A stretch of DNA of 63,885 nucleotides, counting the filler, from Fonticula-like sp. SCN 57-25 (taxonomy: Eukaryota), in the NCBI GenBank assembly GCA_001724245.1. It is 3 parts of 3 records of this genome, joined end to end, with 100 filler letters (N's around TTAATTAATTAA, not from the genome) between each part and the next. Parts side by side here need not be neighbours in the genome. Positions count along the whole stretch, not along the records: positions 25,523 to 50,203 come from MEDX01000061.1; 2 more parts are not named here. One strand, written 5' to 3'. The notes under the pieces were generated by a model that had not been told where the DNA came from, did not search any database, and was given only the letters and a program-made list of their open reading frames with translations. Position 1 is the stretch's first letter; every line of letters begins with the position of its first letter. Positions 2,703 to 48,139 of the stretch are shown here, piece by piece. Both the position numbers and the translations under genes were made by a program.

Positions 2703-3158
2703 ATGACCATGGATCGCCACCCGCTCGGCTGGCTCGCGCGCCTTTTGTACATTCTCGAAGCCCTCGGCAACTATGCTGTCGGCATTGCGACGCTCGTTGA
2801 GCCCGCGCAGGTCCTTCCCATTCTCTGCCCGCTCATCTCTTCCACTGATCCGATGCTCACGCGCCCCGAGATCACGTACCTCGCGCGCATGCTCGGCATC
2901 ATGCTGACGCTCGGCGCCACCACAATGTTCTGGGTGTCGCTCTGCCGCCACCGCGCGACGCTGCTCGCCCTCTGCTGCGGCCTGCTCTTTGTCGATGTCT
3001 CGTGTACGACGCTCGCCTACACATACCTCGGCAGCCGGCTGCCCGACCCGAGCATCGCCGTCGCGCTCGCCATGTTTGTCCTCTACCTCTTGCTGCGCGT
3101 GTACTCTATCTTTGCAGTGCTCTTTTCGTCGTCAAAGCAGCGCGAAAAGTCGCACTAG
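2703..3158 (+). CDS. Small multi-pass membrane protein, unknown function
   Basis: Intronless ORF with about 4 hydrophobic segments and GC3-rich codons. Confidence 0.65.
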   Translation: MTMDRHPLGWLARLLYILEALGNYAVGIATLVEPAQVLPILCPLISSTDPMLTRPEITYLARMLGIMLTLGATTMFWVSLCRHRATLLALCCGLLFVDVSCTTLAYTYLGSRLPDPSIAVALAMFVLYLLLRVYSIFAVLFSSSKQREKSH

Positions 3159-3312
3159 GCCATGAAAGTTGTACGGAAATAAAGGTTAAAATTGATTGGC
3201 GCGAAAGCTGTGATAGCCATAAAGTACATAAAAATGGACAAAAAAGCACCAAAAAAGCACCAAATAGCATAAAAAGGCATAAAAAGGCACCAAAAAAGAC
3301 TTATTTTGTGTC

Positions 3313-6058
3313 TTATTTGGCGTCTTCTTCAACTAAACTGTCCGCCTCACTTGCCCTTGCACTCTTCTTTTCCTCACTCGCCGTGCTCCCAATTGACGAG
3401 CTTGACGCCGTCCCGCCTCCTCTCCTGCGCGCAAAAAAGCTGCTTACACTTGACCGCACTGACCCAACGAGCCGCATTCCTTCTTCGCCCGCCATTGAGA
3501 GCGACTGCTGTACCATTGGCGCAATGTCGCGTCGGATCTGTTCTTGAACGCTCGATACTTTGTTGCTGATATTGTTGCCAATGACCGTCGCAGACCTGAA
3601 TGAATGTTAGAAAAGGAAAGATAAAATGACATAAAAGACATGAAAAGACAAAGAAAATGGCATTAAAAGACACGAAAGTATATATAAAAGTACATACACT
3701 GACATGTAAACGACACATAAATAGACATAAAACTCATAAAATGACACAAAAAGACACATAAATAGACATAAATATACATAAAATGACACAAAAAAACACC
3801 GTTATGCATTGTTCGTACTGAATGAGGCGTGTCTGCAAAGGGTCTTCGTGCCATGGATGACCCGGCACAGTCGACGGCAAAAGTCGCCCTGTACTCGCAA
3901 GTGCATTCCATCCAGCAAAGTTGCGTGTGCCTCGCCAGCCAATAATAAACTTGTTGCCATAATCGGAAAGTGACACAATTGGCTCATTTGCAGTAGTAGT
4001 AGTAGTAGTAGATGTAGTAGATGTAGTAGAAGTAATAGATGTAGATGAAGCAACTGTAGATGTAGATGGAATAGAAGATGTAACTGAAGATGGAATTGAA
4101 GATGTAGTGACAGTGATTGAGGGAAGTGAAGCATCTACAATGTTTGTAGAATCACTCACAGATACGATTCCGGAATCATTATTGTCAATTCCAGAATGAG
4201 TATTGTCAATATCAGCATGAGTATTGTCAATATCAGCATGAGTATTGTCAATATCAGCATCGATTCCAGAATCAATTTTCATTCCAGAATCACTTTCAGT
4301 TTCGCCCGCTCTTGCCGGCAGTGGCGGTGCAATTTCCTCTTCCCCAGGCTGAACAGTCACCGTCACACTCTGACCACGTGGCCTCGCAATGGCCACATTA
4401 CTTGATGACGCATCCATCACGTGATCACCATAAAACGTATGATGCGCCGTCGACAGAAACGACAAAAAGTACACTTCAAACTGCTGCCTCACCCAATCAT
4501 CGCTGCCTTCCCAGCCACTTTGAGCATCACGCTCACTTGCTGCAACTATGGCCACGTGTCAGGCAAACTAGTTTGCACATTAAAGTCAGTTTCAAACGGA
4601 CCTGCATCATAGGCGATGCTTGCGATGGTGTCGATGAAGCGCCGGTCGGAGATGGTGAGGCTCACGGCGGCGGCCAAGGCGGGGTCGGAAATTTCAAATG
4701 ACATTGTGTCAAGCTGTCAATGTGTCAGTAGGGCTATAAATGGGAATGTTGCTATTTATGGCGCACGTCGAGGACGACGTCGGCGGCGGCGAGCTTGCTT
4801 TCCTTGATGATTTGGTTGTTGCAGCCGACGAGGGCGGACGAGGCGGAGGCGAGATCGTCGAGCTGCATAAGTGAGCAGTACGGCTGAAGTGTGCCCTGAA
4901 GTAGGAAAGTGTAAGAAAAAGTAAGGAAGAAGACATAAAAGTGGGGGTAAAATGCAGTAAAAGTAGGCAAAAGTGGGTAAAATGACCACAAATGACCATG
5001 AATGACACAAAATATGGTCATGATTATGTTGGCAAAAAACACAAAATAACACAAAATAACCAAAATTGACCACAAAACAACACTAAAATCCACTAAAATG
5101 ACACTTATTCTCCCTTATAATCTCAATGTTTTCTATTTCGTACGTGAGAGTATATTGACAGTGGAAGGCCGTGCGCCGCCCACGCGTCCCGCTCCGCCCC
5201 CGCGTACGCCGAGAACGCGATCGTCCCCGAGCTCAGCGACTGCAGCAGGCCAGGAAAGAGCGACGCCAGCGTGTAAATAAACGTGCTCAGCGTCGAAGCG
5301 GCGCCGGCAGAGAAAATAATAATTTTCTTTTCGAGCATCATGCACTTTAGCAGCGACAGCAGCTTGACGCCATGCGTCAGGAGCATCGACCGCGGCGTCG
5401 TTCCTGCAAGCTAGTTAATTGACGCCGAAATGACACAAAAAGACATGAAAAGGAAGAAAAATGGCGGACCGACGTAAAAGAGGGACGAATCGCCGTGCGG
5501 CGTCGTGGCATTGCTCGTGCCGATGAGATGGCGCTCAAACTCGTGGAGGATCGCCGTCTGAGAAAAGTCGCGCTCGTTGAAGAGCGCCGCCGAGACAATG
5601 TCCAGCTTGGAGCAAATGACGCCAAAGAGCGGTTGGCGCAGGAGAACGACCACCGCTTTTTGCACAGAGCTGCGCGTGATGTCGGCCGTGCGCGTCGACA
5701 GCTCCTGTGAGGCAGCATGAGCACGGGATTCAGAAAAAAAAAAATATATGTGACGCACGCTGGCCCGAATCTGACGGTAAAAAGAGACGCCGTACAGCGG
5801 CGTATTGGCGACTATCGCGTCCTCTGGGACTGCCTCGAGCATGAAAAAGGAAAAGTCCGAATTGCGATGGTGGATGCCATCGGGCAGCGCGAGGAACGGG
5901 AGGAATCGCCACTCGTGCGGAAGCGAGTACGGCGACGCGCCAACTACATTCGACTGCTTTTTCGCGGCGGGAAGCGCGGGCAGCGAAAGGTCCACCTGCG
6001 GGCCAAGCGTGTGGTGAAAGCCCACAAGCATCACGTACGCGACCGGCGCATCATCCAT
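3313..6058 (-). CDS. AVL9: AVL9 (DENN-like) late secretory pathway protein, multi-exon
   Basis: VGFHHTLGPQV, WRFLPFLALPDG, LYGVSFYRQI, RSSVQKAVVV, LKCMMLEKKI, WEGSDDWVRQQFEVY. Confidence 0.88.
4188..4270. repeat. 21-bp coding minisatellite (ADIDNTH x3-4) in an AVL9 exon
   Basis: ATTGTCAATATCAGCATGAGT repeated in tandem. Confidence 0.85.
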
Positions 6059-6314: not shown

Positions 6315-9300
6315 CTAGCTGAGCATCTCGACGTAGTTTGACGGGATGAGGCCCTTGCGGCCCGCGAGCGATCCCTCCCACCAGTCGCCCGACTCCTTCT
6401 TCGTGATAGTGATGACGTCACCCGTCACGAAGGTGAGCTCGTCGGCCTCGGTCGCCGTGTAGTCGTACAGCGCGCGGCACGTCGGAAGCTTGGGCTTGGG
6501 CGCCGGCGGCGGAATCGGACGCTTTCCAGACGCACCAACACTAGAGAAAGAAAAGAAATGTAAGTCAAAGGGAAATGAAAAGTACAGGCAAAAAGTAACA
6601 AAACATGGTCAAAAACATGCAAAACATAGGCAAAAATACTCAAAACCATACACAAAAACTACACTTCCATACACAAAAACAACATCCAAAAAACAGTCAA
6701 ACGCACCCTGGCACTGGACGTGCGCCTCCCGGCCGCGGCCCAATCGCCGCCGCCACATCCGCCCCACGCTGCACCGGCGCCGCCGCCGCCGCCGCCTGCG
6801 GCGCCGGCCTCGCCATCATCCCCATCATCGGCGGCCTCCCCATGCCCATCGGCGGCCTCGCCACGGGCGCTGCCTGCGGCGGCGCCTGCTGATACGCCGG
6901 CTGCGGCGGCGCCGGCTGCTGATATGCCGGCTGCGGCTGCTGATAAGCCGGCTGCTGCGGGCGCGCTTGAGGGGCACTGCGCGTCGGCCCACGCCCCGCC
7001 GGCTGCGCCAAGCTCCTCGACGGCGCAATATTGCGCGAGTCCTTTGGCAGCCCCGGCGGCACCTTTAGCACGCCATTCTTCATTGTCGGCGCCCTCACGA
7101 CGCTGTCCGGGACAAACTTGATCACTTGCTTTCCCTTTTTCAGCGCGTACTGAATCTGGTCCGAAAACACTAAAGGCGTCTCGCGGCGCAAATGTTCCAT
7201 CGACTTTTGCTGGATCGCCACGATAAGTTCCGTCTTGAAGACGCTCTCAAAGACATTGTCGTATTCGCCGGTCACGTGGATGACAAAAATGTCGTCGGCC
7301 AGCGTCGACACTGAGATGCCAGAGATGGCCTCGAGGCCCAGTTTGCGCTTGACGACGTTGACGTACTTGCCCTTGTTGGGGCCTTCCTTGGCTTTTTCGA
7401 GGGCGATGAGGTAGAGGGTGCGCTCGCCGAGGAGGAGCACGCGGGGTTGCGGCTTGTAGCGGCGCTCGTACTTGATGATGTTGTCGGCAAAGACAATGCG
7501 CTCTTTCTTGTCTGAAAGAGGAAAGAGGAAGGGGAATGAGTAAAAAATAAGGGCAAAAATTGAACAGAAATCAGACACGAAACAAGAAAATCAGACACAA
7601 AATTATGCAATTCAGACACAATTCAGACATAAAACAAGCACAAAATAATCAATTTAGCAACAATTCAGACACAATTTAAACACAATACAAGCGAATCAGA
7701 CGAATCAGATGAATCAGACGTACCGACAAGAGTGCGCAGGCTCGGATTGTCGAGGAATCCGATATAGTCGCCAATGTACTCGCGCTTGAGACTGATGCGC
7801 TTGCGCTCCTTGCGGCCGACCATAATATCTTGCGCTGATTACGTCATCAGTATCATCAACATGACGTAATATGAGGCCACGTACACTTTTCCTTGAGCTC
7901 GAGGAAGTACTTGCGCGCCTTCCATGAGCGGTACGCGCGCTGAATCTTGACGGCGTAGCTGTGGTACTTGCGGCCGCGCATCTCTTCAAGCAAAAAGAGC
8001 TGAAAAAATGAGTGTTAGCAAGGGGTAAAGTGAAGGTAAAGTAAGGTAAAGTGAGGTATAATGAGGTAAAGTAAGGTAAAGTGAGGTAAAGTGGCACAAA
8101 AGTGACACTAAAAATGACACAAAAACAACACAAAATGAAGTAAATTGACACAAATTGACACAAAAATCACATAAAAATGACCAAAAACACCCAATAAACC
8201 CAAAATATCACAAAATTTCGTACCGACTCTGGCGACTTGATAAACACCTTGGTCCTCCCCATCTGATACTGCGCCGGGTCCATATCCACCGACTTTAGCA
8301 CATGAATCACCCCCTGCTGCGCCTGCCCCGCCCACGTGGGGAACGTTTCCGGCGTCAAAATCGCAAACCTGCGCAGGAACTTTTCATACACCTGGCGGTA
8401 CGCATAGCCCGCGCGGCGAATGCGAATGTTCTCCTTGAGGTTCAGATAACGAACCTGATGCGTCACGTGACCATTGTCCCAGTCCTTTGCCTTTTTCGTC
8501 TCGTTGGGCTTGATGCAGCGGATGTAGTGGGGGGTGCACTTGACGAGCGTCTCGACGAGGACGTTGGCTTGGTTTTTGATCTTAAAGGCGGCGGTGGTGG
8601 GGCGCTTCTTGTCGTCAGAGTTCATCTCTTCAGGGAAGAGAGAGCGAATGAAGGGGCTAGGGAAAAGAGTCAGTAAAAGTGGTTGAAAAAGAGACAGTAA
8701 AGTATCATTAAAAGTGACATTAGACAATAAAAGTATCATTAAAAGTAAACAAAAGTATCATTAAAGTGACAATAAAACAACAACAAGTATCATAAAAGTG
8801 ACAATAAAGCAACAAATGAATCATTAAAAGTGACAATAAACCAACAAAGGTATCATTAAAAGTGACAATAGACAACAAAAAGTATCATTAAAAGTGACAA
8901 GAACTCAACAAAAGCATCATTAAAAGTGACAATAAACTACTAAAAACCAGAAAAACACCCATAAAACCCCAATATCCCCCTCTTCATCCCCACGTACTTT
9001 GAAGTGGTCTGCATGAGGACGATGAGATCCTTGTAGAGCGTATCCCTATTCGCCTCACAAAACCCAGTGCCATCATACGTCACCTTACCCGCATAATGCG
9101 TCACCACAAACGACGCATCCAGCCCCCTAAAATGCGCATGATCACTGATACTCATCTGCAGCTTATTCAGCAGCTTTGCATCCGCGCCCTCTGATTGGCC
9201 GTGCAGCTGCGCGCAAATGTCATCGAGCACGGCCATAATGCCGACAGGGCGCTTTGACTCGATCAGATCGCACACGATCTTGTTGTTGAAAAAGTCGATC

Positions 9301-23536: not shown

Positions 23537-23842
23537 TCAGATCAGCTCGACGCGAGCCGCCTTGGCCTCGAGCACCGTAATCAGATCCTGCTTGAGATCC
23601 TCCTTCATCCCCTTGCAAGTTTCGCTCAACCACTTCTCAAAACCTTCCGAGCCGCGCTCCAGGTACTCGATCAGGAGGCGGTAGGGGGTCGTCACGCCGG
23701 CCTCCACAAGGGCCTTCTCGGTGGCCTCGCCGATGGCTGGCAGGTCCTTGAGCTTCATATCCCTCATCCTCATGTCGAGAGCCTCCTGACCCTTCTTGGT
23801 CGTGGGCACGGGGGAAGACTTCACGGGAGACTTGTCACTCAT
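23537..23842 (-). CDS. Barrier-to-autointegration factor (BAF/BANF1)-like protein, copy 1
   Basis: 101 aa, colinear with BAF as recalled: TTKK~TSQK, DLPAIGE~SLAGIGE (HhH), LVEAGVTTPYRLL~LEERGFDKAYVVL, FEKWLSETC~FREWLKDTC. Confidence 0.75.
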   Translation of the reverse strand: MSDKSPVKSSPVPTTKKGQEALDMRMRDMKLKDLPAIGEATEKALVEAGVTTPYRLLIEYLERGSEGFEKWLSETCKGMKEDLKQDLITVLEAKAARVELI

Positions 23843-24425
23843 GATGTACGATTGAGAGGTGTTGCGGCGAGAGCGGCGAGAGAGCTTGCTTAAAAGTGAG
23901 CTAGGCGATCCTGCTGCAAAGTGTCGTCAACAACATTTCACCTGTTGCTATATACTCGGTGTCTGCCTCAATTTGGTAGCGGCAGACGGTCTGCCTTCGT
24001 CGTGATTGGCTGCTTTCTTTCCGCCATGGCCGTGATTGGTCGACTCATCGAGTGCTCCGATTGGATTCGCGCAGCGGTCCAGGGTGTCCACCACGGTCGT
24101 GTCATCAGGTAGACAGATGTATATCTCCCCGATAACGGTAGGCATTCCGCAGGAAAGTACTACCCGCAGTGCACTGAAGCGGCCTGTCTATGCAACTTGG
24201 TTTGTCAGCATGACCAGCCATGGAGCTCGGTCAATCTGATGCCCGCGGCTGACAATGAATAGCTGGCGCTCGCGACGCCCCTATCATCGATCATCGCGCT
24301 GCTGCTACTTTGCTGCTTTGCTTTGCAAACCGCGCTCACTGATATGGGCACCGGCTGCCGTGTATAAATATCGCGCATTGTATAGAAATAAATATATATA
24401 TTACAGTTTGCAAATAATTTACACA

Positions 24426-24725
24426 TCAGATCAGCTCGACGCGAGCCGCCTTGGCCTCGAGCACCACCATCAGATCCTGCTTGAGATGGCTCTTCATCCC
24501 CTTGCAGGTTGTGCCCAACCACTTCTCAAAACCTTCCGAGCCGCGCTCCAGGTACTCGGTCAGCAGGCGGTAGGGGGTCGTCACGCCGACCTTGACAAGT
24601 GCCTTCTCGGTTGCATCGCCGATGGCAGGCAGGCTGCTGAGCTTCATATCCATCAGCCTCGTGTTGATGGAGATCTGTCCCTTCTTGGTCGAGGGGGAAG
24701 ACGTCACGGGAGAGTTGGGACTCAT
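24426..24725 (-). CDS. BAF-like protein, copy 2
   Basis: 99-aa intact paralog of copy 1, 889 bp away. Confidence 0.75.
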   Translation of the reverse strand: MSPNSPVTSSPSTKKGQISINTRLMDMKLSSLPAIGDATEKALVKVGVTTPYRLLTEYLERGSEGFEKWLGTTCKGMKSHLKQDLMVVLEAKAARVELI

Positions 24726-25310
24726 GATGTACGGTTGAGAGGTGTTGCGGCGAGAGCGGCGAGAGAGCTTGCTTGAAAGTGAGCTAATGGTCCAGCTGCT
24801 CTTCACCTGTTCTATATACTCGGTGTCTGCCTCAATTTGATTGCGGCAGACCGTCTGCCTTCTTCGTGATTGGCTGCTTTCTTTCCGCCATGGCCGTGAT
24901 TGGTCACCTCATCGATGTGCTCCGATTGGATTCGCGCCGCCGTCCAGGGTGTCCACCACGGTCGTGTCATCAGGTAGACAGATGTATATCTCCCCGATAT
25001 GGTAGGCAGTCCACTGAAAAGTACTACCGCAGTGCACTGAAGCGGCCTGTCTGTGCAACTTGGTTTGTCAGCTTGACCAGCCATGGAGCTCGGTAAATCT
25101 GATGCCCGCGGCTGACAATGACCAGCTGGCGCTCGCGACGCCCTCATCGATAATTATCATGATTATCATCGCGCTGCTGGCTTCGCTGTGCAAACCGCGC
25201 TCACTGATATGGGCACTGGCTGCGTATAAATATCCCGTACATTATAAAAATAAATAAATATATTAAGGCTTACAAACATTTTTCAGGGATACACAAACGA
25301 TTCGGTCACA

Positions 25311-25422: not shown

Positions 25423-25522
25423 NNNNNNNNNNNNNNNNNNNNNNNNNNNNNNNNNNNNNNNNNNNNTTAATTAATTAANNNNNNNNNNNNNNNNNNNNNN
25501 NNNNNNNNNNNNNNNNNNNNNN
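25423..25522. other. Assembly gap / artificial contig linker
   Basis: N44-TTAATTAATTAA-N44 (stops in all six frames). Confidence 0.97.
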
Positions 25523-27996
25523 CATTGCCCGCCACGCCTGCAGGGCACGTGATGCGCTGACATGGGTTGATGATCTCGCCGAATGTGCCGTCGGGGCCGC
25601 ACGTGCGGCTCGGACTGCCAAAATACTTTTCGTCACATGTGCCGGTAACCGTGGCAAACGCGTCGGCGGCCGGCCACGTGGAAAAGCCATCCGTCACGGC
25701 TGCGCAGCGGACAATCGTGCAAGGATTTGACACCGCGAGCCAATCGCCGTACGCGCTGCAGTCACGCGTGGGGCTGCCGCTGTAGCCGGAAATGCATTCG
25801 CCAGACACAGACTGGGAAAAGGCGGGCGCGTGCGGCCAATTGGCATTGTTTCCTTGGGTAGCGGAGCAGAAGAGCTGCACACATGGATTGGTCACCGTCG
25901 ATGCCCATTGGCCGTCAGCTTGGCAGGTGCGCGAAGGGGTGCCAGCATAGCCGGAAACGCAGATGCCGGTGGCTGTTGTCATTGAAGGCGTGCTTGCCGG
26001 CCATGACGCGTTACCAAACGTTCCGGCGACGCAATAGTGGCGATTGCAAATTGGCGAAACAGTTGACGACCACGTGCCGTCAAGTCGACACTGTCTCTGC
26101 GGCGACCCAAAGTACCCATCGATGCAAACGCCAGTACCATAAGAGCCTCCATTCGTCGATGGCCATGCGGCATTCTGGAACAAGGATTCATCGGGGCACG
26201 CAGGGGAAACGCACTCGCCTTTTACATCCGTTGACCATTCACCGGATGCGAGGCATTCGCGCTGTGGTGCACCTTGAAAGCCAGAGGAACACGTGCCAAC
26301 CGCAGTAGTGAGCGAGTCGCTCTTGGGCCAGATGACATTGTTCAAGGAATCGGCGAAACTGTCGCACGTAATACCTGCAAAAGAACAACTTTAGAGGTCA
26401 TTAAAAAACAACAGCGGCGCGTACGAACGCAAGGCGAGTTAACTTCGCCCCACGTCCCCGACGCAGAGCAGCTGCTTGAAGGAGATCCCGTATAGCCGGC
26501 AACGCATGTGCCATATCCGCTCGTCATGCTATCCGTATCTGTAAAGTTTGCATTGCCCATGGTGGCAGCAGCGCAGAATAGACGAGTGCACGACGTCAAG
26601 GCTGTAGGTGCCCACACGCCGTCGCTTTGGCACCGACGAGTAGCAGACCCCGCATAGCCCGAAATGCATGTTCCATTGGCTAACTCGCCGCCGTTTGTGA
26701 GCGGATAGGTTGCGCTGCCGACAAAACCTGAATTGTCAGCGGGGCATGATGAAACTATATTGCATGTCAGCAAACACATTGTCACGTGATGTGCGTACGA
26801 GTGCAAGGATTGGACACGGCACCCCAGGCAGTATTGCTGCAAAAGGCTGTTGGCGATCCAGTAAAACCACTTAAGCAGGTGCCGTGGGCGGTCTTGTCAG
26901 ACTCTGTCTGGGGAAAGTTCGCGTTGCCCATGGTCCTGGCAGCACACGCGGTATCTACAAAATATCATTAGTAACATATGATGTGCGGGATGCGCGTACA
27001 GGTGCACGACGTTCCGGAGCCGCTGTAATACTTGTTGCAGACGCACGCGCCACCAGTACATGTCGCATTAACGTGGCAAGTAAAGTAATCAAACGATAGA
27101 TACGGAACGTAGCTTCCATCGCGGGACACGTGCGTTTCCCAAGCCACAAGAGTCGCTTGCGAATAGAAATTCCGGATAGTTACCTGACAATCGTCGTGTT
27201 AAAATGTCGCCTCAATCGCACAGCGGAAACGCACCGCGCTGCTCGATTGGCGAACGGCAGCGTTGATAACGTCTGGCGACAAAGGCACATAGTACCAGTA
27301 CGTATCGTAACCGCTTGATGAACCAGGTTAGTTAGGCAAAGATACCTCGGCTGAATATGCGCACTAGGTGTATCCGGCGATGACACTTGCGGCGGATTCA
27401 TCGAGTGAAGGCTGAGTATTCCATGTCAACGTTGCAAAGTTGCTGCATCTCAAGTCAATAAAGCAATGGCACGAAATATTACAACGTACACGGCGTCCTT
27501 TGGTACGTCGACTATGACATTGCTCGTCAGGCTTGAAGGACTTGTCGACGCATAATTGAGGTATAGCCGTGGTGTGCCTGTTGCACAAAAACGCGCAGGA
27601 ACGGGCTAGAACATATTGCGTCAGCAATAATCGGGTGCTACAATTGGAAACGAACCGCATGACTGGCGAAATTGAATTTGTAGTAGGCGACGCTCGTCGG
27701 TTCTGAACCACTGCCTTGCGTAAATGTTTCGGTATTTTCCCACTCGCAAAAATTTCCAAGCGGAGGCCACCAACCACAATCTTCCTTGGGACTATAATTT
27801 GTGGTAGGGCTGGACAACCTTGTGTGGATGGCATCGTGCGCATCTACGACTACCGCGGTGGCTGTGCAGCGACCTCATCAGCATTCTCTGAAATCCCGCG
27901 CCCATTCGCACCTTGCACAAACAAACTAGCCAACAGGGCGGCGACGAGCAGAACGGCGAGTGATCTCCCCCCCGCGCGGCTCCTTCGCTCCTCCAT
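25523..27996 (-). CDS. Secreted/surface protein with an N-terminal DNRLRE/CBM96-like domain and many ~52-aa four-Cys repeats (3' end in gap)
   Basis: Signal peptide exon (LAVLLVAALLASLFVQ); repeats C-x6-8-W-P-x-T..G-x-C-xx-G-Y-x-G-S-P-x-R-x-C-xxx-G-x-W..P-C. Confidence 0.75.
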
Positions 27997-38895: not shown

Positions 38896-39125
38896 CGTGG
38901 CCTCGTGGAAAACAATGACAGACGAGAGGGGCTGAATCCACCCTAGACTACGCAGAATAGGGGTGAATCCACCCTGGATTTTTAGAGTGGAATCCACCCT
39001 GGACAGATTTGAGAACGAGAATCTGAATCACTCTATTAACGGTGAGATTGACAAAAATTAATACAGAAGGTATACAATATAGATCCATATGGATTGTGGC
39101 ACATAAAACTTAAGACTAATACGAG

Positions 39126-41156
39126 TTACACTGCGACGGCGGCGGTCTTGTCGGCAGCCACCCTTCCCTCGAGCGCGCCCTTTTCGATCCCACCGGTCAT
39201 CACCGACGGCATCTTGCGGCCCATGTTGCTCACGAGGACATTCGGCACATGCAAAAACACATACTAACCACCCATTAGTCACCATTAATATTATCACGGT
39301 GTGCGTACGTCGCAGATCGCGTCCTTGATGCGCATCGTGAGGAGGCACTTGTAGTCGACGGTCGGCTGCAAAAAGGTCGCCAGGATGGGCGAGTCCTCGG
39401 GCAGCAGCCTACATTTCTCGCGTGAGCACACAATCTATAAACCTTTACTGTCATTGCGGGTACGCACCTGTGGAGATGGTTGCGGACGATCTCCCAGGCA
39501 ACATCGTTGTGGTGCAGCCCGAGCGCGCGCGCCAGCCTGTGCAGCTGCAGCTGAATGCCCGTGTGGAAGAGAACCGGCGGCGAGTCGGCCGGCGTCTCGG
39601 ACACGATGGTCGACCCCGGCAGCAGCTCGAGGTCGACGCCCAGCGTCTCCTTGAGCGTCGCCACGTGAATGCGCAGCCCGCCAAAGTCGCGCACGGCGAA
39701 CCCGACGAGCTCGCCGGCGTCATTGAAGCGCGCGAGCACGTTCTGGCCGTGCGTCTCAAAGGCGAACGCGTGGTCGCGCAGCGGCGGGATGAAGCAGTCG
39801 AGGAACAGACGCGCGTAATTCTCGAAAAAGGCGACGCGCGAGGAAAACGAGTCGAGGCCGAGCACGCTCACGACGTTGGCCACGCCAGTGAGCGGGTCGC
39901 GCTCGACAAGGGCGCCTGTAATGATAAAGTGCTCAGAGGGGCGCAGGCGCGAGGGGTCGTCGCGGATGATGCACGCAAGGTGTTTGGCGACAGAGGGCGA
40001 GGCGTGAAGAGCGCCAATCGTGGCGGGTTCATCAAGAATCAAAAGCTCTAACCGAACAAACAGGACCAAAGGAAATACCAAAATTGTTAGTGACGTTTGC
40101 CAATGCTGCTGCTTCACGCACCTGGCGGGGCAATCATGCGGGCGACCTGGCCGACGCGCGGGCCGTTAAACACCGAGTAGGGCGAGATCGTGCGGAGCGC
40201 CGACGTGGCCTGCACGCCGAGCGACAGCTTGACGTGGTACGGCAGCGTCAGCGGGCTCATTGAACGCAGCTGCAAACCGAGGTCAGTTTGCATATCAATA
40301 GCCATGCATTCGTACCGAGGTCTGCGGGTAGGCGGACTGCGTGCCCTCGAGGAGGCGCGCCTGCGGGAAGCGCTCCTGGACGCGAGGCCACTGCCCGGGG
40401 TGGACCGGCACGACGACGAGGTCGGCCGACGGCGACGGCGGCGCCCAGCCCTTCATGATGCTGCAAAGATGAAAAAAGTCAGTGGCGTGGGGACAATGCA
40501 AGAGTGGCGCACCTTTCAAAGTCGCCGTGGATGGCCATGTCGGCGCGCGGCATCGTCACAAACTTGATGCCGACGGTCCGGCGCATCTCGGCGGCCCACT
40601 CGAGCGTCTCCTCCTTCGTGAGGCCAATGCGCGTGCGGTGCATCGGGTGCGTCGGATGACCCTCAACGACCGCGCGCTCCCAGTCGATCGCCGGCGACGA
40701 AATCGACAGCGGCTCGCGAGGCGAAAGGTACGCGAGCTCCTGATTCCGAACGGAGCTGTCCAGCTCGGCGGCGATCGAGGCCGCGACGTCGTCCGAGGGA
40801 GGCGGAGAAAGGTGAGGCGCCACGAGGAGGAAGAGCGCGCTTGGCATCGACATGTCGCCGGCACGAGCGGCGGGTGTCTTCACCGAGACGGACCACGACG
40901 CAATGTCCTCCTGGTCGATGAACTCGATCGTGCGCGAGCCGGCCAGCACCGCCTCCGGGACAACCGAAAAGGCAAAGCTGAACGCAGGGGAGGAGCCGTC
41001 AGCGCACGACGGAGGCGCCACAATCACAGATCCGCTTACGGCATCGAGCACCGTGCACGACACGAGCTTCTCATTGATGAGGGCGGCCACGAGGCGACGA
41101 AGCGTCGCGCGACGGGCAAGCGACTGGGCGTCGGCGACTGTCATTTGTTGTGTCAT
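39126..41156 (-). CDS. NRPS-independent siderophore synthetase (IucA/IucC family), about 5 introns
   Basis: EGHPTHPMHRTR, VPVHPGQ, PQTSLRS, HVKLSLGVQATSALRTISP, FETHGQNVL, VRDFGG. Confidence 0.9.
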
Positions 41157-41671
41157 ACAGGCCGAGCGGGCAAGATAAAAAGAGTCAACGGAGAAAACTA
41201 TGTAGGGGATCCTTGAACAGGTCCAGGACACGAGATGACTGCCGAGGAAGCGGGACAGCCAGTCAACAGCGCACGGGCCCAGGCGTCATCTCACGTCATC
41301 CTAAAGTCACGTGATTTGTTTAAAATCACGCCATGGCAGCAAATTGGCCGAGCAGTGGCCGAGTTTGCAGTCCATGTTTGTCATTATTTTACATTCATCG
41401 CTGTGATTCACCGCCAGTTCTCCGAATGCATGGCGGCAAATATGTATATCATACCAAGATGATACTGTAATGTTATGTAGCTATGCGCTTTGCATTCTGG
41501 TGAATACTTTTTTTATTTGCAAACTGTACAATCGCTGATGTTAGGCTTTTTACGTCTATTGTATCTCCATCCCACATATACACAAAGCAAAGCCTTACAG
41601 AATAAGATGAAAGGAGAGAAGACGTGGGGTATACAAGCAGTGGTGCGCGTCGTTGCAAATACGACTCAAAA

Positions 41672-45205: not shown

Positions 45206-45637
45206 CTACGCCGACGTCGTGGCGGACCCCTCGGCGGCCGCGGTGGCGGCCTTTGCCGGGGCGCGCTTCAGCTCCGCTGTCGACGGCGGGGCGCTGAAAA
45301 ACTTCCACTCCTTCTTGAGCCCACCCGGGACGCGCGTCGGCGTCGCATCCGTCTGGCCGCGCCACGTCTTGACGCCCCACGCGGCGCCATGAGAAAGGTC
45401 CTTTGTCGGCTTCACCTGCGTTAATGTGTAGTACGACTCGAAGCCGTTCCAGATGGACCGCGTCACGCGCGTGCCGGCGCCGTACTGCGGAAGAACAGTC
45501 ACAAGCTCATAGAGATTGCGGCGGCCGCGCTTGGCGGCAGCGGTCATCTTTGTAGAGGACGCGGCGGTCGCTGTTGATACAGTGGACGCGAGCTTGGTCG
45601 CGGCATTCGCGGCCGCCTTGGCCGCCGTCGCGCTCAT
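45206..45637 (-). CDS. Mitochondrial ribosomal protein mS34-like
   Basis: NLYELVTVLPQYGAGTRVTRSIW..SYYTLTQVKP..HGAAWGVKTWRG. Confidence 0.8.
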   Translation of the reverse strand: MSATAAKAAANAATKLASTVSTATAASSTKMTAAAKRGRRNLYELVTVLPQYGAGTRVTRSIWNGFESYYTLTQVKPTKDLSHGAAWGVKTWRGQTDATPTRVPGGLKKEWKFFSAPPSTAELKRAPAKAATAAAEGSATTSA

Positions 45638-45753
45638 GCCCCCGATGCCTCGCGGTTCAAAAGTGTCCACAGGTCGTCTACACGCCTGTCACAACTCTTT
45701 GGCTCGATTATGGACGAGAATGCTTATGTAACGTTTCTGAAGATTTGAATTTC

Positions 45754-45827: not shown

Positions 45828-45951
45828 TTTCTAACTTTTTGACTTTTTTTTCGTCGCCGTTCGTCCAGTTTGCAGTTTGCCGCCACGTGTGGGATTATAA
45901 ACCCTTTGGAGCGTCGTCGTCGTTTACGTGTGTGCACGAGGCAGGGCTCTA

Positions 45952-47787
45952 ATGTTTGGTGGAATCTTTGGAGGCGGCAAGCCGGCTGCTGGCGCCGGTC
46001 CCGCTGCGAACGCGGACGGCTTTGGCGACCTTGTTGGCGCGACTGCTGCTGCCGGTAGCGGTGGCCGCAAGGACGCGCCCGCGAGCGGTAGCAGCGGCGC
46101 TTCCGCGCAGGCGGGCCAGGGTTTCTTTGATCCCAGCGGTCTCGAGCGCGCCGCCAAGGCCGCCCGTGATCTTGACGGCTCGCGCAATGCCAAGGAGGCG
46201 CTCGAGATCGTCCGCATGCAGGAGGTGACAAAGCAGCAGGAGCTCCAGCTTCGCCGGAAGGAGGCCGAGACGCAGTACAAGGCGCTTGATCTGCAGCGCA
46301 TTGAAAAGGAGGGCGAGGAGCGCCGCAAGACGATCGAGACGGAGACGTCTCACCTCAACTACCGCGCAAAGCAGCAGGACGAGCTTGCTCGCAAGCGTCA
46401 GCAGGAGCAGATTGCTGCGCAAAAGGCGCTTCAGGATGAGCAGCTCCGCAAGCAGGAGGAGTCTCTTGCCAAGCAGGAGGCGATGCGCCGCTCGACGATA
46501 GAATATGAGCAGCGTCTCAAGCGCGACACTGAGCTTGCCAAGGTGATGGCCGAGGCCGATGGCCGCATCAAGGAGCAGCGCGAGAACCGCGATGTCGCCC
46601 TTGAGCGCCTCCGCGCCGAGGCGAATGAGAAGCGCGAGACTGTGCTGCAGGCGATCCGCCAGGCCGGCACGACGCTCGGCGACGGCTTTTCCAACTTTAT
46701 CACGGACGGCGACAAGGTGTTTGCCACGATCACTGGCCTGTCGCTGCTCGCGCTCGGTGTGTACGGTGCGCGCTCTTCGACCGCCGTCATTGGCCGTTTT
46801 GTCGAGTCGCGTATCGGCAAGCCGACGCTCGTGCGCGAAACGTCGCGCCGCCCGCCGCTGTACTCTCTTCTTCACCCGATTGCTGCCGCTCGCGGCCTTA
46901 TTTCCCGCCTGAGCTCTGACAAGAAGCAGCGCATGCTCGACGGCATTGTTCTTTCGCCGCTCGAGGAGACGCGCCTTCGCGACATTGTGTGGTCGACGAT
47001 CAACGCCAAGAAGAACCGCGCGCCGCTGCGTAACCTTCTTCTTCACGGCCCGCCCGGCACGGGTAAGACGATGTTTGCCAAGCGCCTTGCGCTCAACAGC
47101 GGCCTCGACTATGCCATCATGACTGGTGGTGACGTGCTTCCTCTTGGCCGCGAGGCCGTGTCCGAGATCCACAAGACGTTTGATTGGGCGTCGACCAACA
47201 GCCGCGGTACGCTTCTCTTCATTGACGAAGCCGACGCCTTCCTTCGCCAGCGCGACCGCGCCGTCATCTCTGAGGACATGCGCACTGCGCTCAACGCCTT
47301 CCTGTACCGCACCGGCGAGACGTCCAAAAAGTTTATGGTCGTGCTCGCGTCCAACCAGCCCGAGCAGCTCGACTCGGCCATCCAGGACCGTCTTGACGAG
47401 CTTGTGCCTTTCAGCCTGCCCGGCAGCGACGAGCGCTTCCGCATGCTGACGCTCTACTTTAACATGTACGTGCGCGACCACCACAAGGTTACGGGCGCCA
47501 AGCCCATTGACTGCGTCGAGATCACCGAAAAGGACCTCGAGCAGGTCGCCATCAAGGCGCGTGGCTTCTCGGGCCGCGAGCTGTCCAAGCTCGCCATCGC
47601 GCTGCAGGCCAACGCGTACGCGACAGAGAGCAACACCGTCACGAGGGCAATGTTCAACAGCACCGTCGAGTCGTACCTCAAGCAGCACGCGCTCAAGGAC
47701 AAGTGGGCCGAGGGTGCCCCTCAAGGGGACGAGGAGGGCGGCAAGAAGAAGACGGCCGCGTACGGCAACGCCATGCCGTCGACGTGA
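45952..47787 (+). CDS. ATAD3: ATAD3 mitochondrial AAA+ ATPase, intronless
   Basis: FDPSGLERAAKAA, coiled coil, LALGVY, GKPTLVRETS, GPPGTGKT, FIDEADAF, GFSGRE. Confidence 0.95.
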   Translation: MFGGIFGGGKPAAGAGPAANADGFGDLVGATAAAGSGGRKDAPASGSSGASAQAGQGFFDPSGLERAAKAARDLDGSRNAKEALEIVRMQEVTKQQELQLRRKEAETQYKALDLQRIEKEGEERRKTIETETSHLNYRAKQQDELARKRQQEQIAAQKALQDEQLRKQEESLAKQEAMRRSTIEYEQRLKRDTELAKVMAEADGRIKEQRENRDVALERLRAEANEKRETVLQAIRQAGTTLGDGFSNFITDGDKVFATITGLSLLALGVYGARSSTAVIGRFVESRIGKPTLVRETSRRPPLYSLLHPIAAARGLISRLSSDKKQRMLDGIVLSPLEETRLRDIVWSTINAKKNRAPLRNLLLHGPPGTGKTMFAKRLALNSGLDYAIMTGGDVLPLGREAVSEIHKTFDWASTNSRGTLLFIDEADAFLRQRDRAVISEDMRTALNAFLYRTGETSKKFMVVLASNQPEQLDSAIQDRLDELVPFSLPGSDERFRMLTLYFNMYVRDHHKVTGAKPIDCVEITEKDLEQVAIKARGFSGRELSKLAIALQANAYATESNTVTRAMFNSTVESYLKQHALKDKWAEGAPQGDEEGGKKKTAAYGNAMPST

Positions 47788-48139
47788 GTGGAAAAAAGTG
47801 GAAAATGCTAGAGCGGCGGCGGCAGGAAAGGACAAGTTAAAATGACTCTTTGATGTATCTATAATCTCCCCACTTCATCCCTTTTCTTTTCTTTATCATT
47901 GTCATGGTCGCTCGTGCCTGGCGCGGCCGCGCGCTTCTTTTCTGTTCCTATTGTTTCGGTGATTTGCAGTTTCCTTCCTTCTTTCGTGATGTGATGTGTG
48001 CACATGATGATGATGATGATGACAAAATTAATATGCAATATATTACACAGCATACACAAATATCGATAATTATAAAGACTACAATGTCATTAGAATACAG
48101 CGAAAGTGCAATGAAAATGTGCAAAAATGACGACAATGC

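Follow-up and report, generated by a model that had tools for sequence, protein, structure and literature searches.

The Rfs-like family of NIS (IucA/IucC-type) siderophore synthetases is known mainly from Mucorales, in which rhizoferrin contributes to virulence. According to the available portions of the papers concerned, Rfs of Rhizopus makes rhizoferrin from citrate and putrescine, with 1,3-diaminopropane preferred in vitro (PMC7857480, PMC10700112), and a single NIS enzyme suffices for rhizoferrin in Rhizopus and in Ralstonia (PMC7857480). The same portions report that FslA takes ornithine, not putrescine, and acts with a decarboxylase via citryl-ornithine (PMC10700112, PMC7857480), that Rfs and its basidiomycete orthologues group with the Type A' enzymes FslA, LbtA and SfaB/D, and that the rfs gene has six exons (both PMC10700112). 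In the accessible text of Koczyk et al. 2021 (PMC8070225), single-gene NIS synthetases are described as vertically inherited in early-diverging fungi and in Fonticula ("including Fonticula alba"). The present work concerns an NIS gene of Fonticula-like sp. SCN 57-25 (assembly GCA_001724245.1). It lies in a stretch of 63,885 nt (filler included; the whole analysed stretch is called the window below), which joins parts of three records; positions 25,523 to 50,203, which hold the gene, come from MEDX01000061.1. The sequence stems from a bioreactor/wastewater metagenome. The gene likely resides, in working form, in the nuclear genome of an uncultured nucleariid-like holomycotan and encodes a stand-alone Rfs-like NIS synthetase. 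By analogy with the family, its product would rather probably be a citrate-amine polycarboxylate siderophore.

The coding span runs on the minus strand from an ATG that starts at 41156 to a TAA whose last base is 39126. A second in-frame ATG is present at 41144, and upstream of 41156 there is no further in-frame ATG before the stop at 41285. The six exons (Table 1), joined by script, give 1755 nt, which is 584 codons and a stop, with zero internal stops. All five introns are bounded by GT..AG and begin with GTGCG (three) or GTACG (two), and each has a CTRAC-like branch motif. The GC content is 46% in the introns and 66% in the exons. The S-x-R motif is present only in the spliced message because intron 2 falls between S263 and L264-R265. 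If intron 5 is left unspliced, the frame ends after four codons and the VPN block is lost, whereas exon 6 restores the ...DY....VPN.. end. When the spliced protein was aligned with ten homologues, all five junctions were free of gaps and insertions.

Table 1. Exons and introns of the NIS gene, in order of translation, with the conserved blocks that each carries.
Feature	Position	Strand	Content
Exon 1	40513..41156	-	Codons 1-214 + 2 nt; N-terminal region (poorly conserved), WE..EGHPTHPMHRTR motif (H167, H170)
Intron 1	40461..40512	-	52 nt, GTGCG...CAG, phase 2
Exon 2	40316..40460	-	Through codon 263; PVHPGQ, last residue S263 of the S-x-R motif
Intron 2	40270..40315	-	46 nt, GTACG...CAG, phase 0; interrupts the S263/L264-R265 nucleotide-binding motif
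Exon 3	40122..40269	-	Codons 264-312 + 1 nt; R265, K277, TSALRT (T285, R289)
Intron 3	40048..40121	-	74 nt, GTGCG...TAG, phase 1
Exon 4	39468..40047	-	Through codon 505 + 2 nt; end of IucA_IucC domain, most of FhuF-like domain
Exon 4 motifs	39468..40047	-	FETHGQN (E410, H412, Q414, N415), RDFGG (R432, D433)
Intron 4	39409..39467	-	59 nt, GTGCG...TAG, phase 2
Exon 5	39309..39408	-	Through codon 539; YKCLLTMR block
Intron 5	39264..39308	-	45 nt, GTACG...TAG, phase 0
Exon 6	39126..39263	-	Codons 540-584 + TAA stop; conserved VPN (P546, N547)

Scanned singly against Pfam, exon 1 matched the IucA_IucC domain (PF04183) at profile positions 3-53 (E 6.9e-10, 39.3 bits against a gathering threshold of 25) and exon 3 matched it at 135-179 (E 1e-9, 38.8 bits, same threshold). 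Exon 4 matched positions 193-238 of this profile under the cut-off (E 0.006, 16.6 bits) and positions 2-120 of 161 of the FhuF-like domain PF06276 well above it (E 6e-12, 46.8 bits against 25.2), and exons 2, 5 and 6 gave zero matches in these single-exon scans. Since the exon matches run 3-53, 135-179, 193-238 and then into the FhuF-like domain, the domain pieces stand in profile order. In a full realignment with 22 eukaryotic homologues, the protein conserves all 25 invariant columns and 31 of the 32 near-invariant ones (56 of 57 together), the sole departure being A406 where the family has G. In a profile alignment to AcsD (2w02), residues H170, S279, R281, K293, T301 and R305 of AcsD correspond to H167, S263, R265, K277, T285 and R289, and E442, H444, Q446, N447 and D464 correspond to E410, H412, Q414, N415 and D433; all eleven are identical. 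We take these AcsD positions to be the ATP-, Mg- and citrate-binding residues described with its structure. Single-exon searches of solved structures reached E values of 0.2-0.6 only, and a family profile was needed: it matched AsbB (2.6e-37), DfoC (2.3e-19), IucC (2.2e-18), AcsD (4.8e-18) and IucA (6.9e-16), with AlcC, DesD and NcdF weaker, down to 1e-11. The initial annotation had described a spliced IucA/IucC-type synthetase with intact NIS catalytic motifs. The open six-exon frame, the ordered Pfam pieces and the homologue-consistent junctions bear out the first part, and the kept residues the second, since neither a frameshift nor a missing conserved catalytic residue was found. A real, spliced and selected NIS-family gene is almost certain.

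The gene also has the habits of its host genome. The Fonticula protein served to find the myosin I gene of the window (minus strand, 10897-6321), whose introns were read between high-scoring segment pairs (HSPs). Intron starts of the form GTRCG are found in five of five NIS introns and, read by eye, in six of seven myosin I introns, in agreement with the earlier description of the NIS introns as host-style. Relative synonymous codon usage correlates between the NIS gene and four host genes (r = 0.94), and the GC content at third codon positions (GC3) is 0.85 in the NIS gene and 0.72-0.80 in those four genes. The DNA runs that contain the locus sequence are from bioreactor, wastewater and aquatic metagenomes. 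A 12.7-kb contig in run X1 covers the whole 38900-41400 stretch (2.5 kb), and the 3343-nt assembly L015 is 100% identical to window positions 41923-38581, although the two need not be independent.

Run X4 carries a diverged strain of the locus with 46 differences, of which 40 are listed. Among those listed, 19 lie in exons, comprising 16 synonymous and 3 non-synonymous differences (pN/pS 0.066), and the synonymous ones are all at third positions of the modelled frame; 11 more lie in the 276 intron bases. Five of five indels are outside the exons: a 1-nt deletion and a 2-nt insertion in intron 1, a 1-nt insertion in intron 3, which also has six substitutions, and two downstream of the stop. This pattern of substitutions and indels supports the exon model and functional constraint on the product. 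The gene is under selection. It is resident and no bacterial contamination, as had been claimed at the outset; codon usage, its place among eukaryotes in the gene tree and the strain variation, with its exon-sparing indels, all uphold that claim.

Searched with exon 4 alone, 1.84 billion representative proteins gave 391 matches at E<=0.001, the best being 52-53% identical. With the spliced model, phmmer ranked the collected homologues with P0130, a metagenomic protein (1.5e-116), and the Lithocolla globosa protein (1.6e-116) ahead of that of Fonticula alba (2.3e-110); the best of these values lies far outside what chance would give. Organism names were taken from part of the matches only (8 proteins and 30 clusters) and comprise 21 organisms: 17 fungi, two nucleariids, one plant (Selaginella) and one endofungal bacterium (Glomeribacter). 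The fungi span a chytrid, blastoclad, zoopagomycete, kickxellomycete, glomeromycete, Mucorales, asco- and basidiomycete range, and no animal or other holozoan is among the 21. The earlier suggestion of an opisthokont-ancestral gene is therefore better replaced by a Holomycota-wide one.

The NIS tree (IQ-TREE, LG+G4, 42 rows) was rooted with Staphylococcaceae loci. In it, the query gene joins P0130 (99/73), then Fonticula alba (97/94), then Lithocolla (91/90), and falls inside a nucleariid and fungal clade (96/91). Its sister is a clade of five rows comprising P0002, P0145, P0180, P0209 and P0242; FslA-like sequences that score 361-452 bits to the NCBIfam FslA model (NF041038) and the Staphylococcaceae follow in turn. 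Among NCBIfam models, FslA (rhizoferrin) also ranks first for each of the 22 eukaryotic members and for exons 3 and 4. Of the groups named for a phylogeny in the initial annotation, the rows cover FslA-like and bacterial (Staphylococcaceae) sequences, which are the nearest outgroups; the Rhizopus delemar Rfs and the Type A, B and C references are not among the rows. These results suggest that the family is Holomycota-wide and probably of bacterial origin.

Three further placements in the tree are worth recording. A locus of the sister clade (the P0209/P0403 group) is L034:4753-7293, which lies with its flanks in a 139-kb contig of 65-71% GC. Its genes (TPR, MscS, alpha/beta hydrolase) are tightly packed, mostly on one strand and uninterrupted, and the contig looks bacterial; its lineage is a candidate donor, or recipient, of the holomycotan family gene. 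Mycoavidus and Glomeribacter are Burkholderia-related endosymbionts of Mortierella and Glomeromycotina fungi. The NIS genes of Glomeribacter and of Mycoavidus cysteinexigens metagenome-assembled genomes (MAGs) (L001-L004, match ~3001-4800 each; P0215/P0406) stand inside the fungal clade. They adjoin Ramicandelaber (98/94), and the bacterial group itself is supported at 100/100. This looks like transfer from fungus to endosymbiont, or like host DNA in MAGs, though the Glomeribacter gene is on a 2.6-Mb bacterial contig. The only plant match, P0001 of Selaginella moellendorffii (SELMODRAFT_407912), stands within fungi beside P0143 (100/98) and then Entomophthora (100/99); the options are contamination of the plant assembly with fungal DNA and gene transfer from a fungus to the plant.

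Scanning metagenomes yielded 55 related loci, and an environmental clade with shared introns, represented by eight rows in the tree, surrounds Fonticula. Intron 2 (..S / L/I-R..) recurs in L014, L044 and L030 with identical position and phase, as does intron 3 (phase 1, after A-P-P/K) in L044 and L031. These four loci group with the query, Fonticula and P0130 at a FastTree support of only 89, and intron sharing was seen only within this nucleariid-like clade. The HSPs of three metagenomic loci that resemble Agaricomycetes are interrupted a little later, by a few codons, than the intron 2 site, and a sharing of intron 2 with these fungi was considered and rejected: the intron of L022 is 5 nt downstream and in phase 2, and is therefore a different intron. 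The closest full-length relative, P0130 (~40% identical), is encoded by L013:63-1811 in another eukaryote, where its neighbours are likewise eukaryotic (RPC82, an epimerase split over frames and GH36). It is intronless, against five introns in the query, so intron content varies widely within the clade.

The identity of the host was approached through myosin I. Its head exon is 70% identical to that of Fonticula alba, while the other 119 matches listed are at 59-67%, with one outlier at 42%. In the myosin tree, the query and Fonticula are joined with an approximate likelihood-ratio support (SH-aLRT) of 96, followed by two more sequences (100) and then Amoeboaphelidium (100), apart from animals. 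The description of the host as non-fungal-looking agrees with this placement. The host tree and the NIS tree agree with each other, which fits vertical descent in a nucleariid-like lineage. Judged from these sequences, the host is quite likely a nucleariid-like member of Holomycota and a relative of Fonticula rather than a true fungus. The window also contains two BAF open reading frames (ORFs) at 23540-24908, MRP-S34 at 45209-45688, ATAD3 at 45901-47784 and cysteine-rich HRM/Sushi/Ephrin-CRD proteins at 25470-26896; to our knowledge, BAF, MRP-S34, ATAD3 and HRM/Sushi-domain proteins are absent or rare in fungi. The longer introns of the myosin I gene (8655-9000 and 8002-8221) are full of short tandem-like units with TTGTCACTTTTAATGATAC-like and CACTTTACCT-like motifs.

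The neighbouring genes are of eukaryotic types and include no evident pathway partner. Besides the NIS gene, the window holds genes for an acyltransferase, Avl9, myosin I, FYVE, DTW, translin, ABCG, the two BAF proteins, HRM/Sushi, WD40, cyclin-like, EF-hand and RRM proteins, EF-Ts, MRP-S34, tRNA-Phe, ATAD3, a phosphoesterase, MRP-S33, NOC3, an RPB9-like protein and OSBP. Pfam scans of the ORFs in the 64-kb window (at least 90 aa near the NIS gene and at least 120 aa elsewhere, so that small exons could be missed) found no decarboxylase, siderophore-type acyltransferase, MFS/SIT transporter or second NIS gene. The only possible transport gene is the ABCG gene, 17 kb away. The earlier statement that no tailoring enzymes are adjacent thus holds among the window ORFs, and a single core gene without clustered tailoring genes is a trait of the holomycotan Rfs-like NIS family that is matched here. 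Between the NIS stop and the start of the downstream RRM-protein gene lies a 230-nt spacer, in which GAATCCACCCTRGA occurs in three direct copies at 38934-39003 (0.02 matches expected, three observed; the rest of the window has none). These repeats may be a promoter or terminator element. An open frame of 641 aa at 45952-47874 on the minus strand, antisense to ATAD3 and with no Pfam match, in all likelihood arises from high GC3 and does not represent a gene.

The function can be proposed from family chemistry. The enzyme would bind ATP-Mg and citrate and form a citryl-adenylate for attack by an amine, with putrescine, 1,3-diaminopropane or a similar diamine as the most likely candidate. Two such reactions by one enzyme at a single diamine would yield an Fe(III)-chelating dicitryl polycarboxylate of the rhizoferrin kind, and a rhizoferrin-like product is plausible by analogy with the described members. 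The single-enzyme fungal route is favoured over the two-enzyme Francisella route because no partner genes lie nearby.

Other explanations of the locus have to be considered. NIS synthetases are mostly bacterial, the window is metagenome contig sequence and the closest outgroups look bacterial, so that contamination with bacterial DNA, an assembly chimera or a gene recently acquired from bacteria and still not working as a eukaryotic one might be suspected. However, five spliceosomal-type introns break the frame, one of them inside the S-x-R motif, and introns are common to relatives, the nearest of which are eukaryotic. The codon usage fits the host, and the flanks are eukaryotic genes on one contig, with the X1 contig spanning the locus and L015 identical to it. 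This explanation is extremely improbable and is effectively refuted by the introns, host codon usage, eukaryotic flanks and eukaryotic relatives. A decaying or silent pseudogene would suit the occurrence of the locus sequence in DNA runs only and in no RNA run. Because no RNA run contains the sequence, splicing itself is read from homology and strain variation only; this also counts against the proposed reading of a functional gene, as do the low depth of the strain contigs (2.5-5.6x) and the six unlisted differences out of 46. Nevertheless, the spliced model reads through without an internal stop and retains 56 of 57 conserved positions, and the low pN/pS with indels confined to non-exonic sequence indicates purifying selection. 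The pseudogene was therefore rejected and is considered highly improbable.

More weight attaches to the points that concern host and chemistry. The host could be a true early-diverging fungus or an aphelid- or rozellid-like organism, and the gene another fungal rfs-like gene. Its placement uses one host gene and the NIS gene itself, that is, two genes in all; the myosin tree is a quick IQ-TREE run on an approximate whole protein and 25 of the 120 matches listed; Amoeboaphelidium is the next myosin relative, and Lithocolla joins the NIS clade at only 91/90. A search with ATAD3 returned its own protein and then matches of 48-56% led by oomycetes and fishes, with no nucleariid signal. Against a fungal host, the query stands beside Fonticula alba in both trees (96; 97/94), and the window carries the ATAD3, two BAF, MRP-S34 and HRM/Sushi genes mentioned above, which makes such a host unlikely. 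With the same gene and fold, the chemistry or role might also differ: the enzyme might join another acid or amine (ornithine, spermidine) or a citryl intermediate, as AsbB and other Type C enzymes do, or the product might serve to store or buffer iron inside the cell, or serve a different metal, instead of being a secreted rhizoferrin-like siderophore. AsbB (3to3), which we take to be a Type C NIS enzyme, is the best solved structure by profile, well ahead of the citrate-using AcsD and IucA, so that the amine may be another one or the role an intermediate-condensing one. The identity to fungal family members is only 30-35%, no exporter or importer gene lies nearby, and FslA itself takes ornithine, not putrescine, in the available portions of PMC10700112 and PMC7857480. 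The Type A' assignment is indirect, as the FslA-model scores are far under the NCBIfam cut-off (e.g. 31 versus 1000 bits) and the tree is without Type A, B and C references, and the orthology to Rfs is by clade, since the R. delemar sequence was not identified among the rows. On the other side, FslA (rhizoferrin) is the best model in all 22 members, the clade includes Mucorales, whose enzyme makes rhizoferrin according to the same portions (PMC7857480, PMC10700112), and every position matching the AcsD citrate and ATP contacts is kept. A different chemistry or role accordingly has a minor share of the probability. Nucleariids are phagotrophs, and the need for a secreted siderophore is for this reason not obvious. 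The preferred reading is still that of a stand-alone Rfs-like synthetase in a nucleariid-like host.

A wider history can be put forward tentatively. Carboxylate-siderophore biosynthesis may predate Fungi: a Type A'-like bacterial NIS gene would have entered the Holomycota stem, gained introns, at least two of which are shared in the environmental nucleariid-like clade, and remained under strong purifying selection to this day in amoebae of wastewater, soil and fresh water that are phagotrophic and lack a wall, and the family would also have moved into Burkholderia-related endosymbionts (Mycoavidus/Glomeribacter). If so, these protists would supply rhizoferrin-like iron chelators to microbial communities without having been recognised as a source of them. 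If the product were confirmed, siderophore production by phagotrophic protists would be new for microbial iron cycling, and the trait would be older than the origin of fungi. The locus adds an uncultured non-fungal lineage, with evidence of selection, to the siderophore-synthetase family and exposes the environmental clade with shared introns around Fonticula. Its interest would rise above the modest only if the product, and what it does for a phagotroph, were demonstrated. As to novelty, the accessible text of PMC8070225 already documents the family from Holomycota, Fonticula included. This was the sole paper in our literature search to link IucC and Fonticula; the search returned none linking NIS synthetase and Holomycota and none on siderophore synthesis in nucleariids themselves, and one nucleariid paper mentions siderophore once, about plant-parasitic fungi.

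Among known systems, the closest are the proteins of Fonticula alba (XP_009497925.1, match P0131, the family protein reported in the accessible text of PMC8070225) and Lithocolla globosa (EP00732_P003325, P0139). They belong to the same clade, have the same IucA_IucC and FhuF architecture and come from hosts that are likewise non-fungal Holomycota; they differ in species and are ~39% identical to the query over 540-573 aligned positions. The sister metagenomic orthologue P0130 of L013 differs in having no introns against the five of the query, and the literature search found no experimental study of P0131, P0139 or P0130. Rfs of Rhizopus delemar and Mucor is, like the query, the product of a stand-alone gene with IucA_IucC and FhuF domains and six exons (rfs, in the available part of PMC10700112), and the Rfs-like family holds a Mucorales branch (Fennellomyces P0152). 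In the Agaricomycete-like fungal loci, the intron near the site of intron 2 of the query is offset by 5 nt and has a different phase. FslA and LbtA, which make rhizoferrin and legiobactin in bacteria, and the staphyloferrin A enzymes SfaB/SfaD use citrate and an amine. The top NCBIfam model is that of FslA, and FslA-like sequences and Staphylococcaceae loci stand as successive outgroups to the eukaryotic clade. Their bacterial genes lie in operons with a decarboxylase or exporter, whereas the query has no such neighbours, and it stands outside the FslA/LbtA/Sfa equivalogs because its scores are far under the family cut-offs. AsbB (3to3), AcsD (2w02), IucA/IucC and DesD are distant (profile E 2.6e-37 to 1e-11) and their substrates differ. 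They have in common with the query the motif blocks GHPxHP, S-x-R-T, K, TSxxRT, E-x-H-x-Q-N and RDF, and because these blocks are common to the solved NIS synthetases, the same adenylate-forming mechanism is expected.

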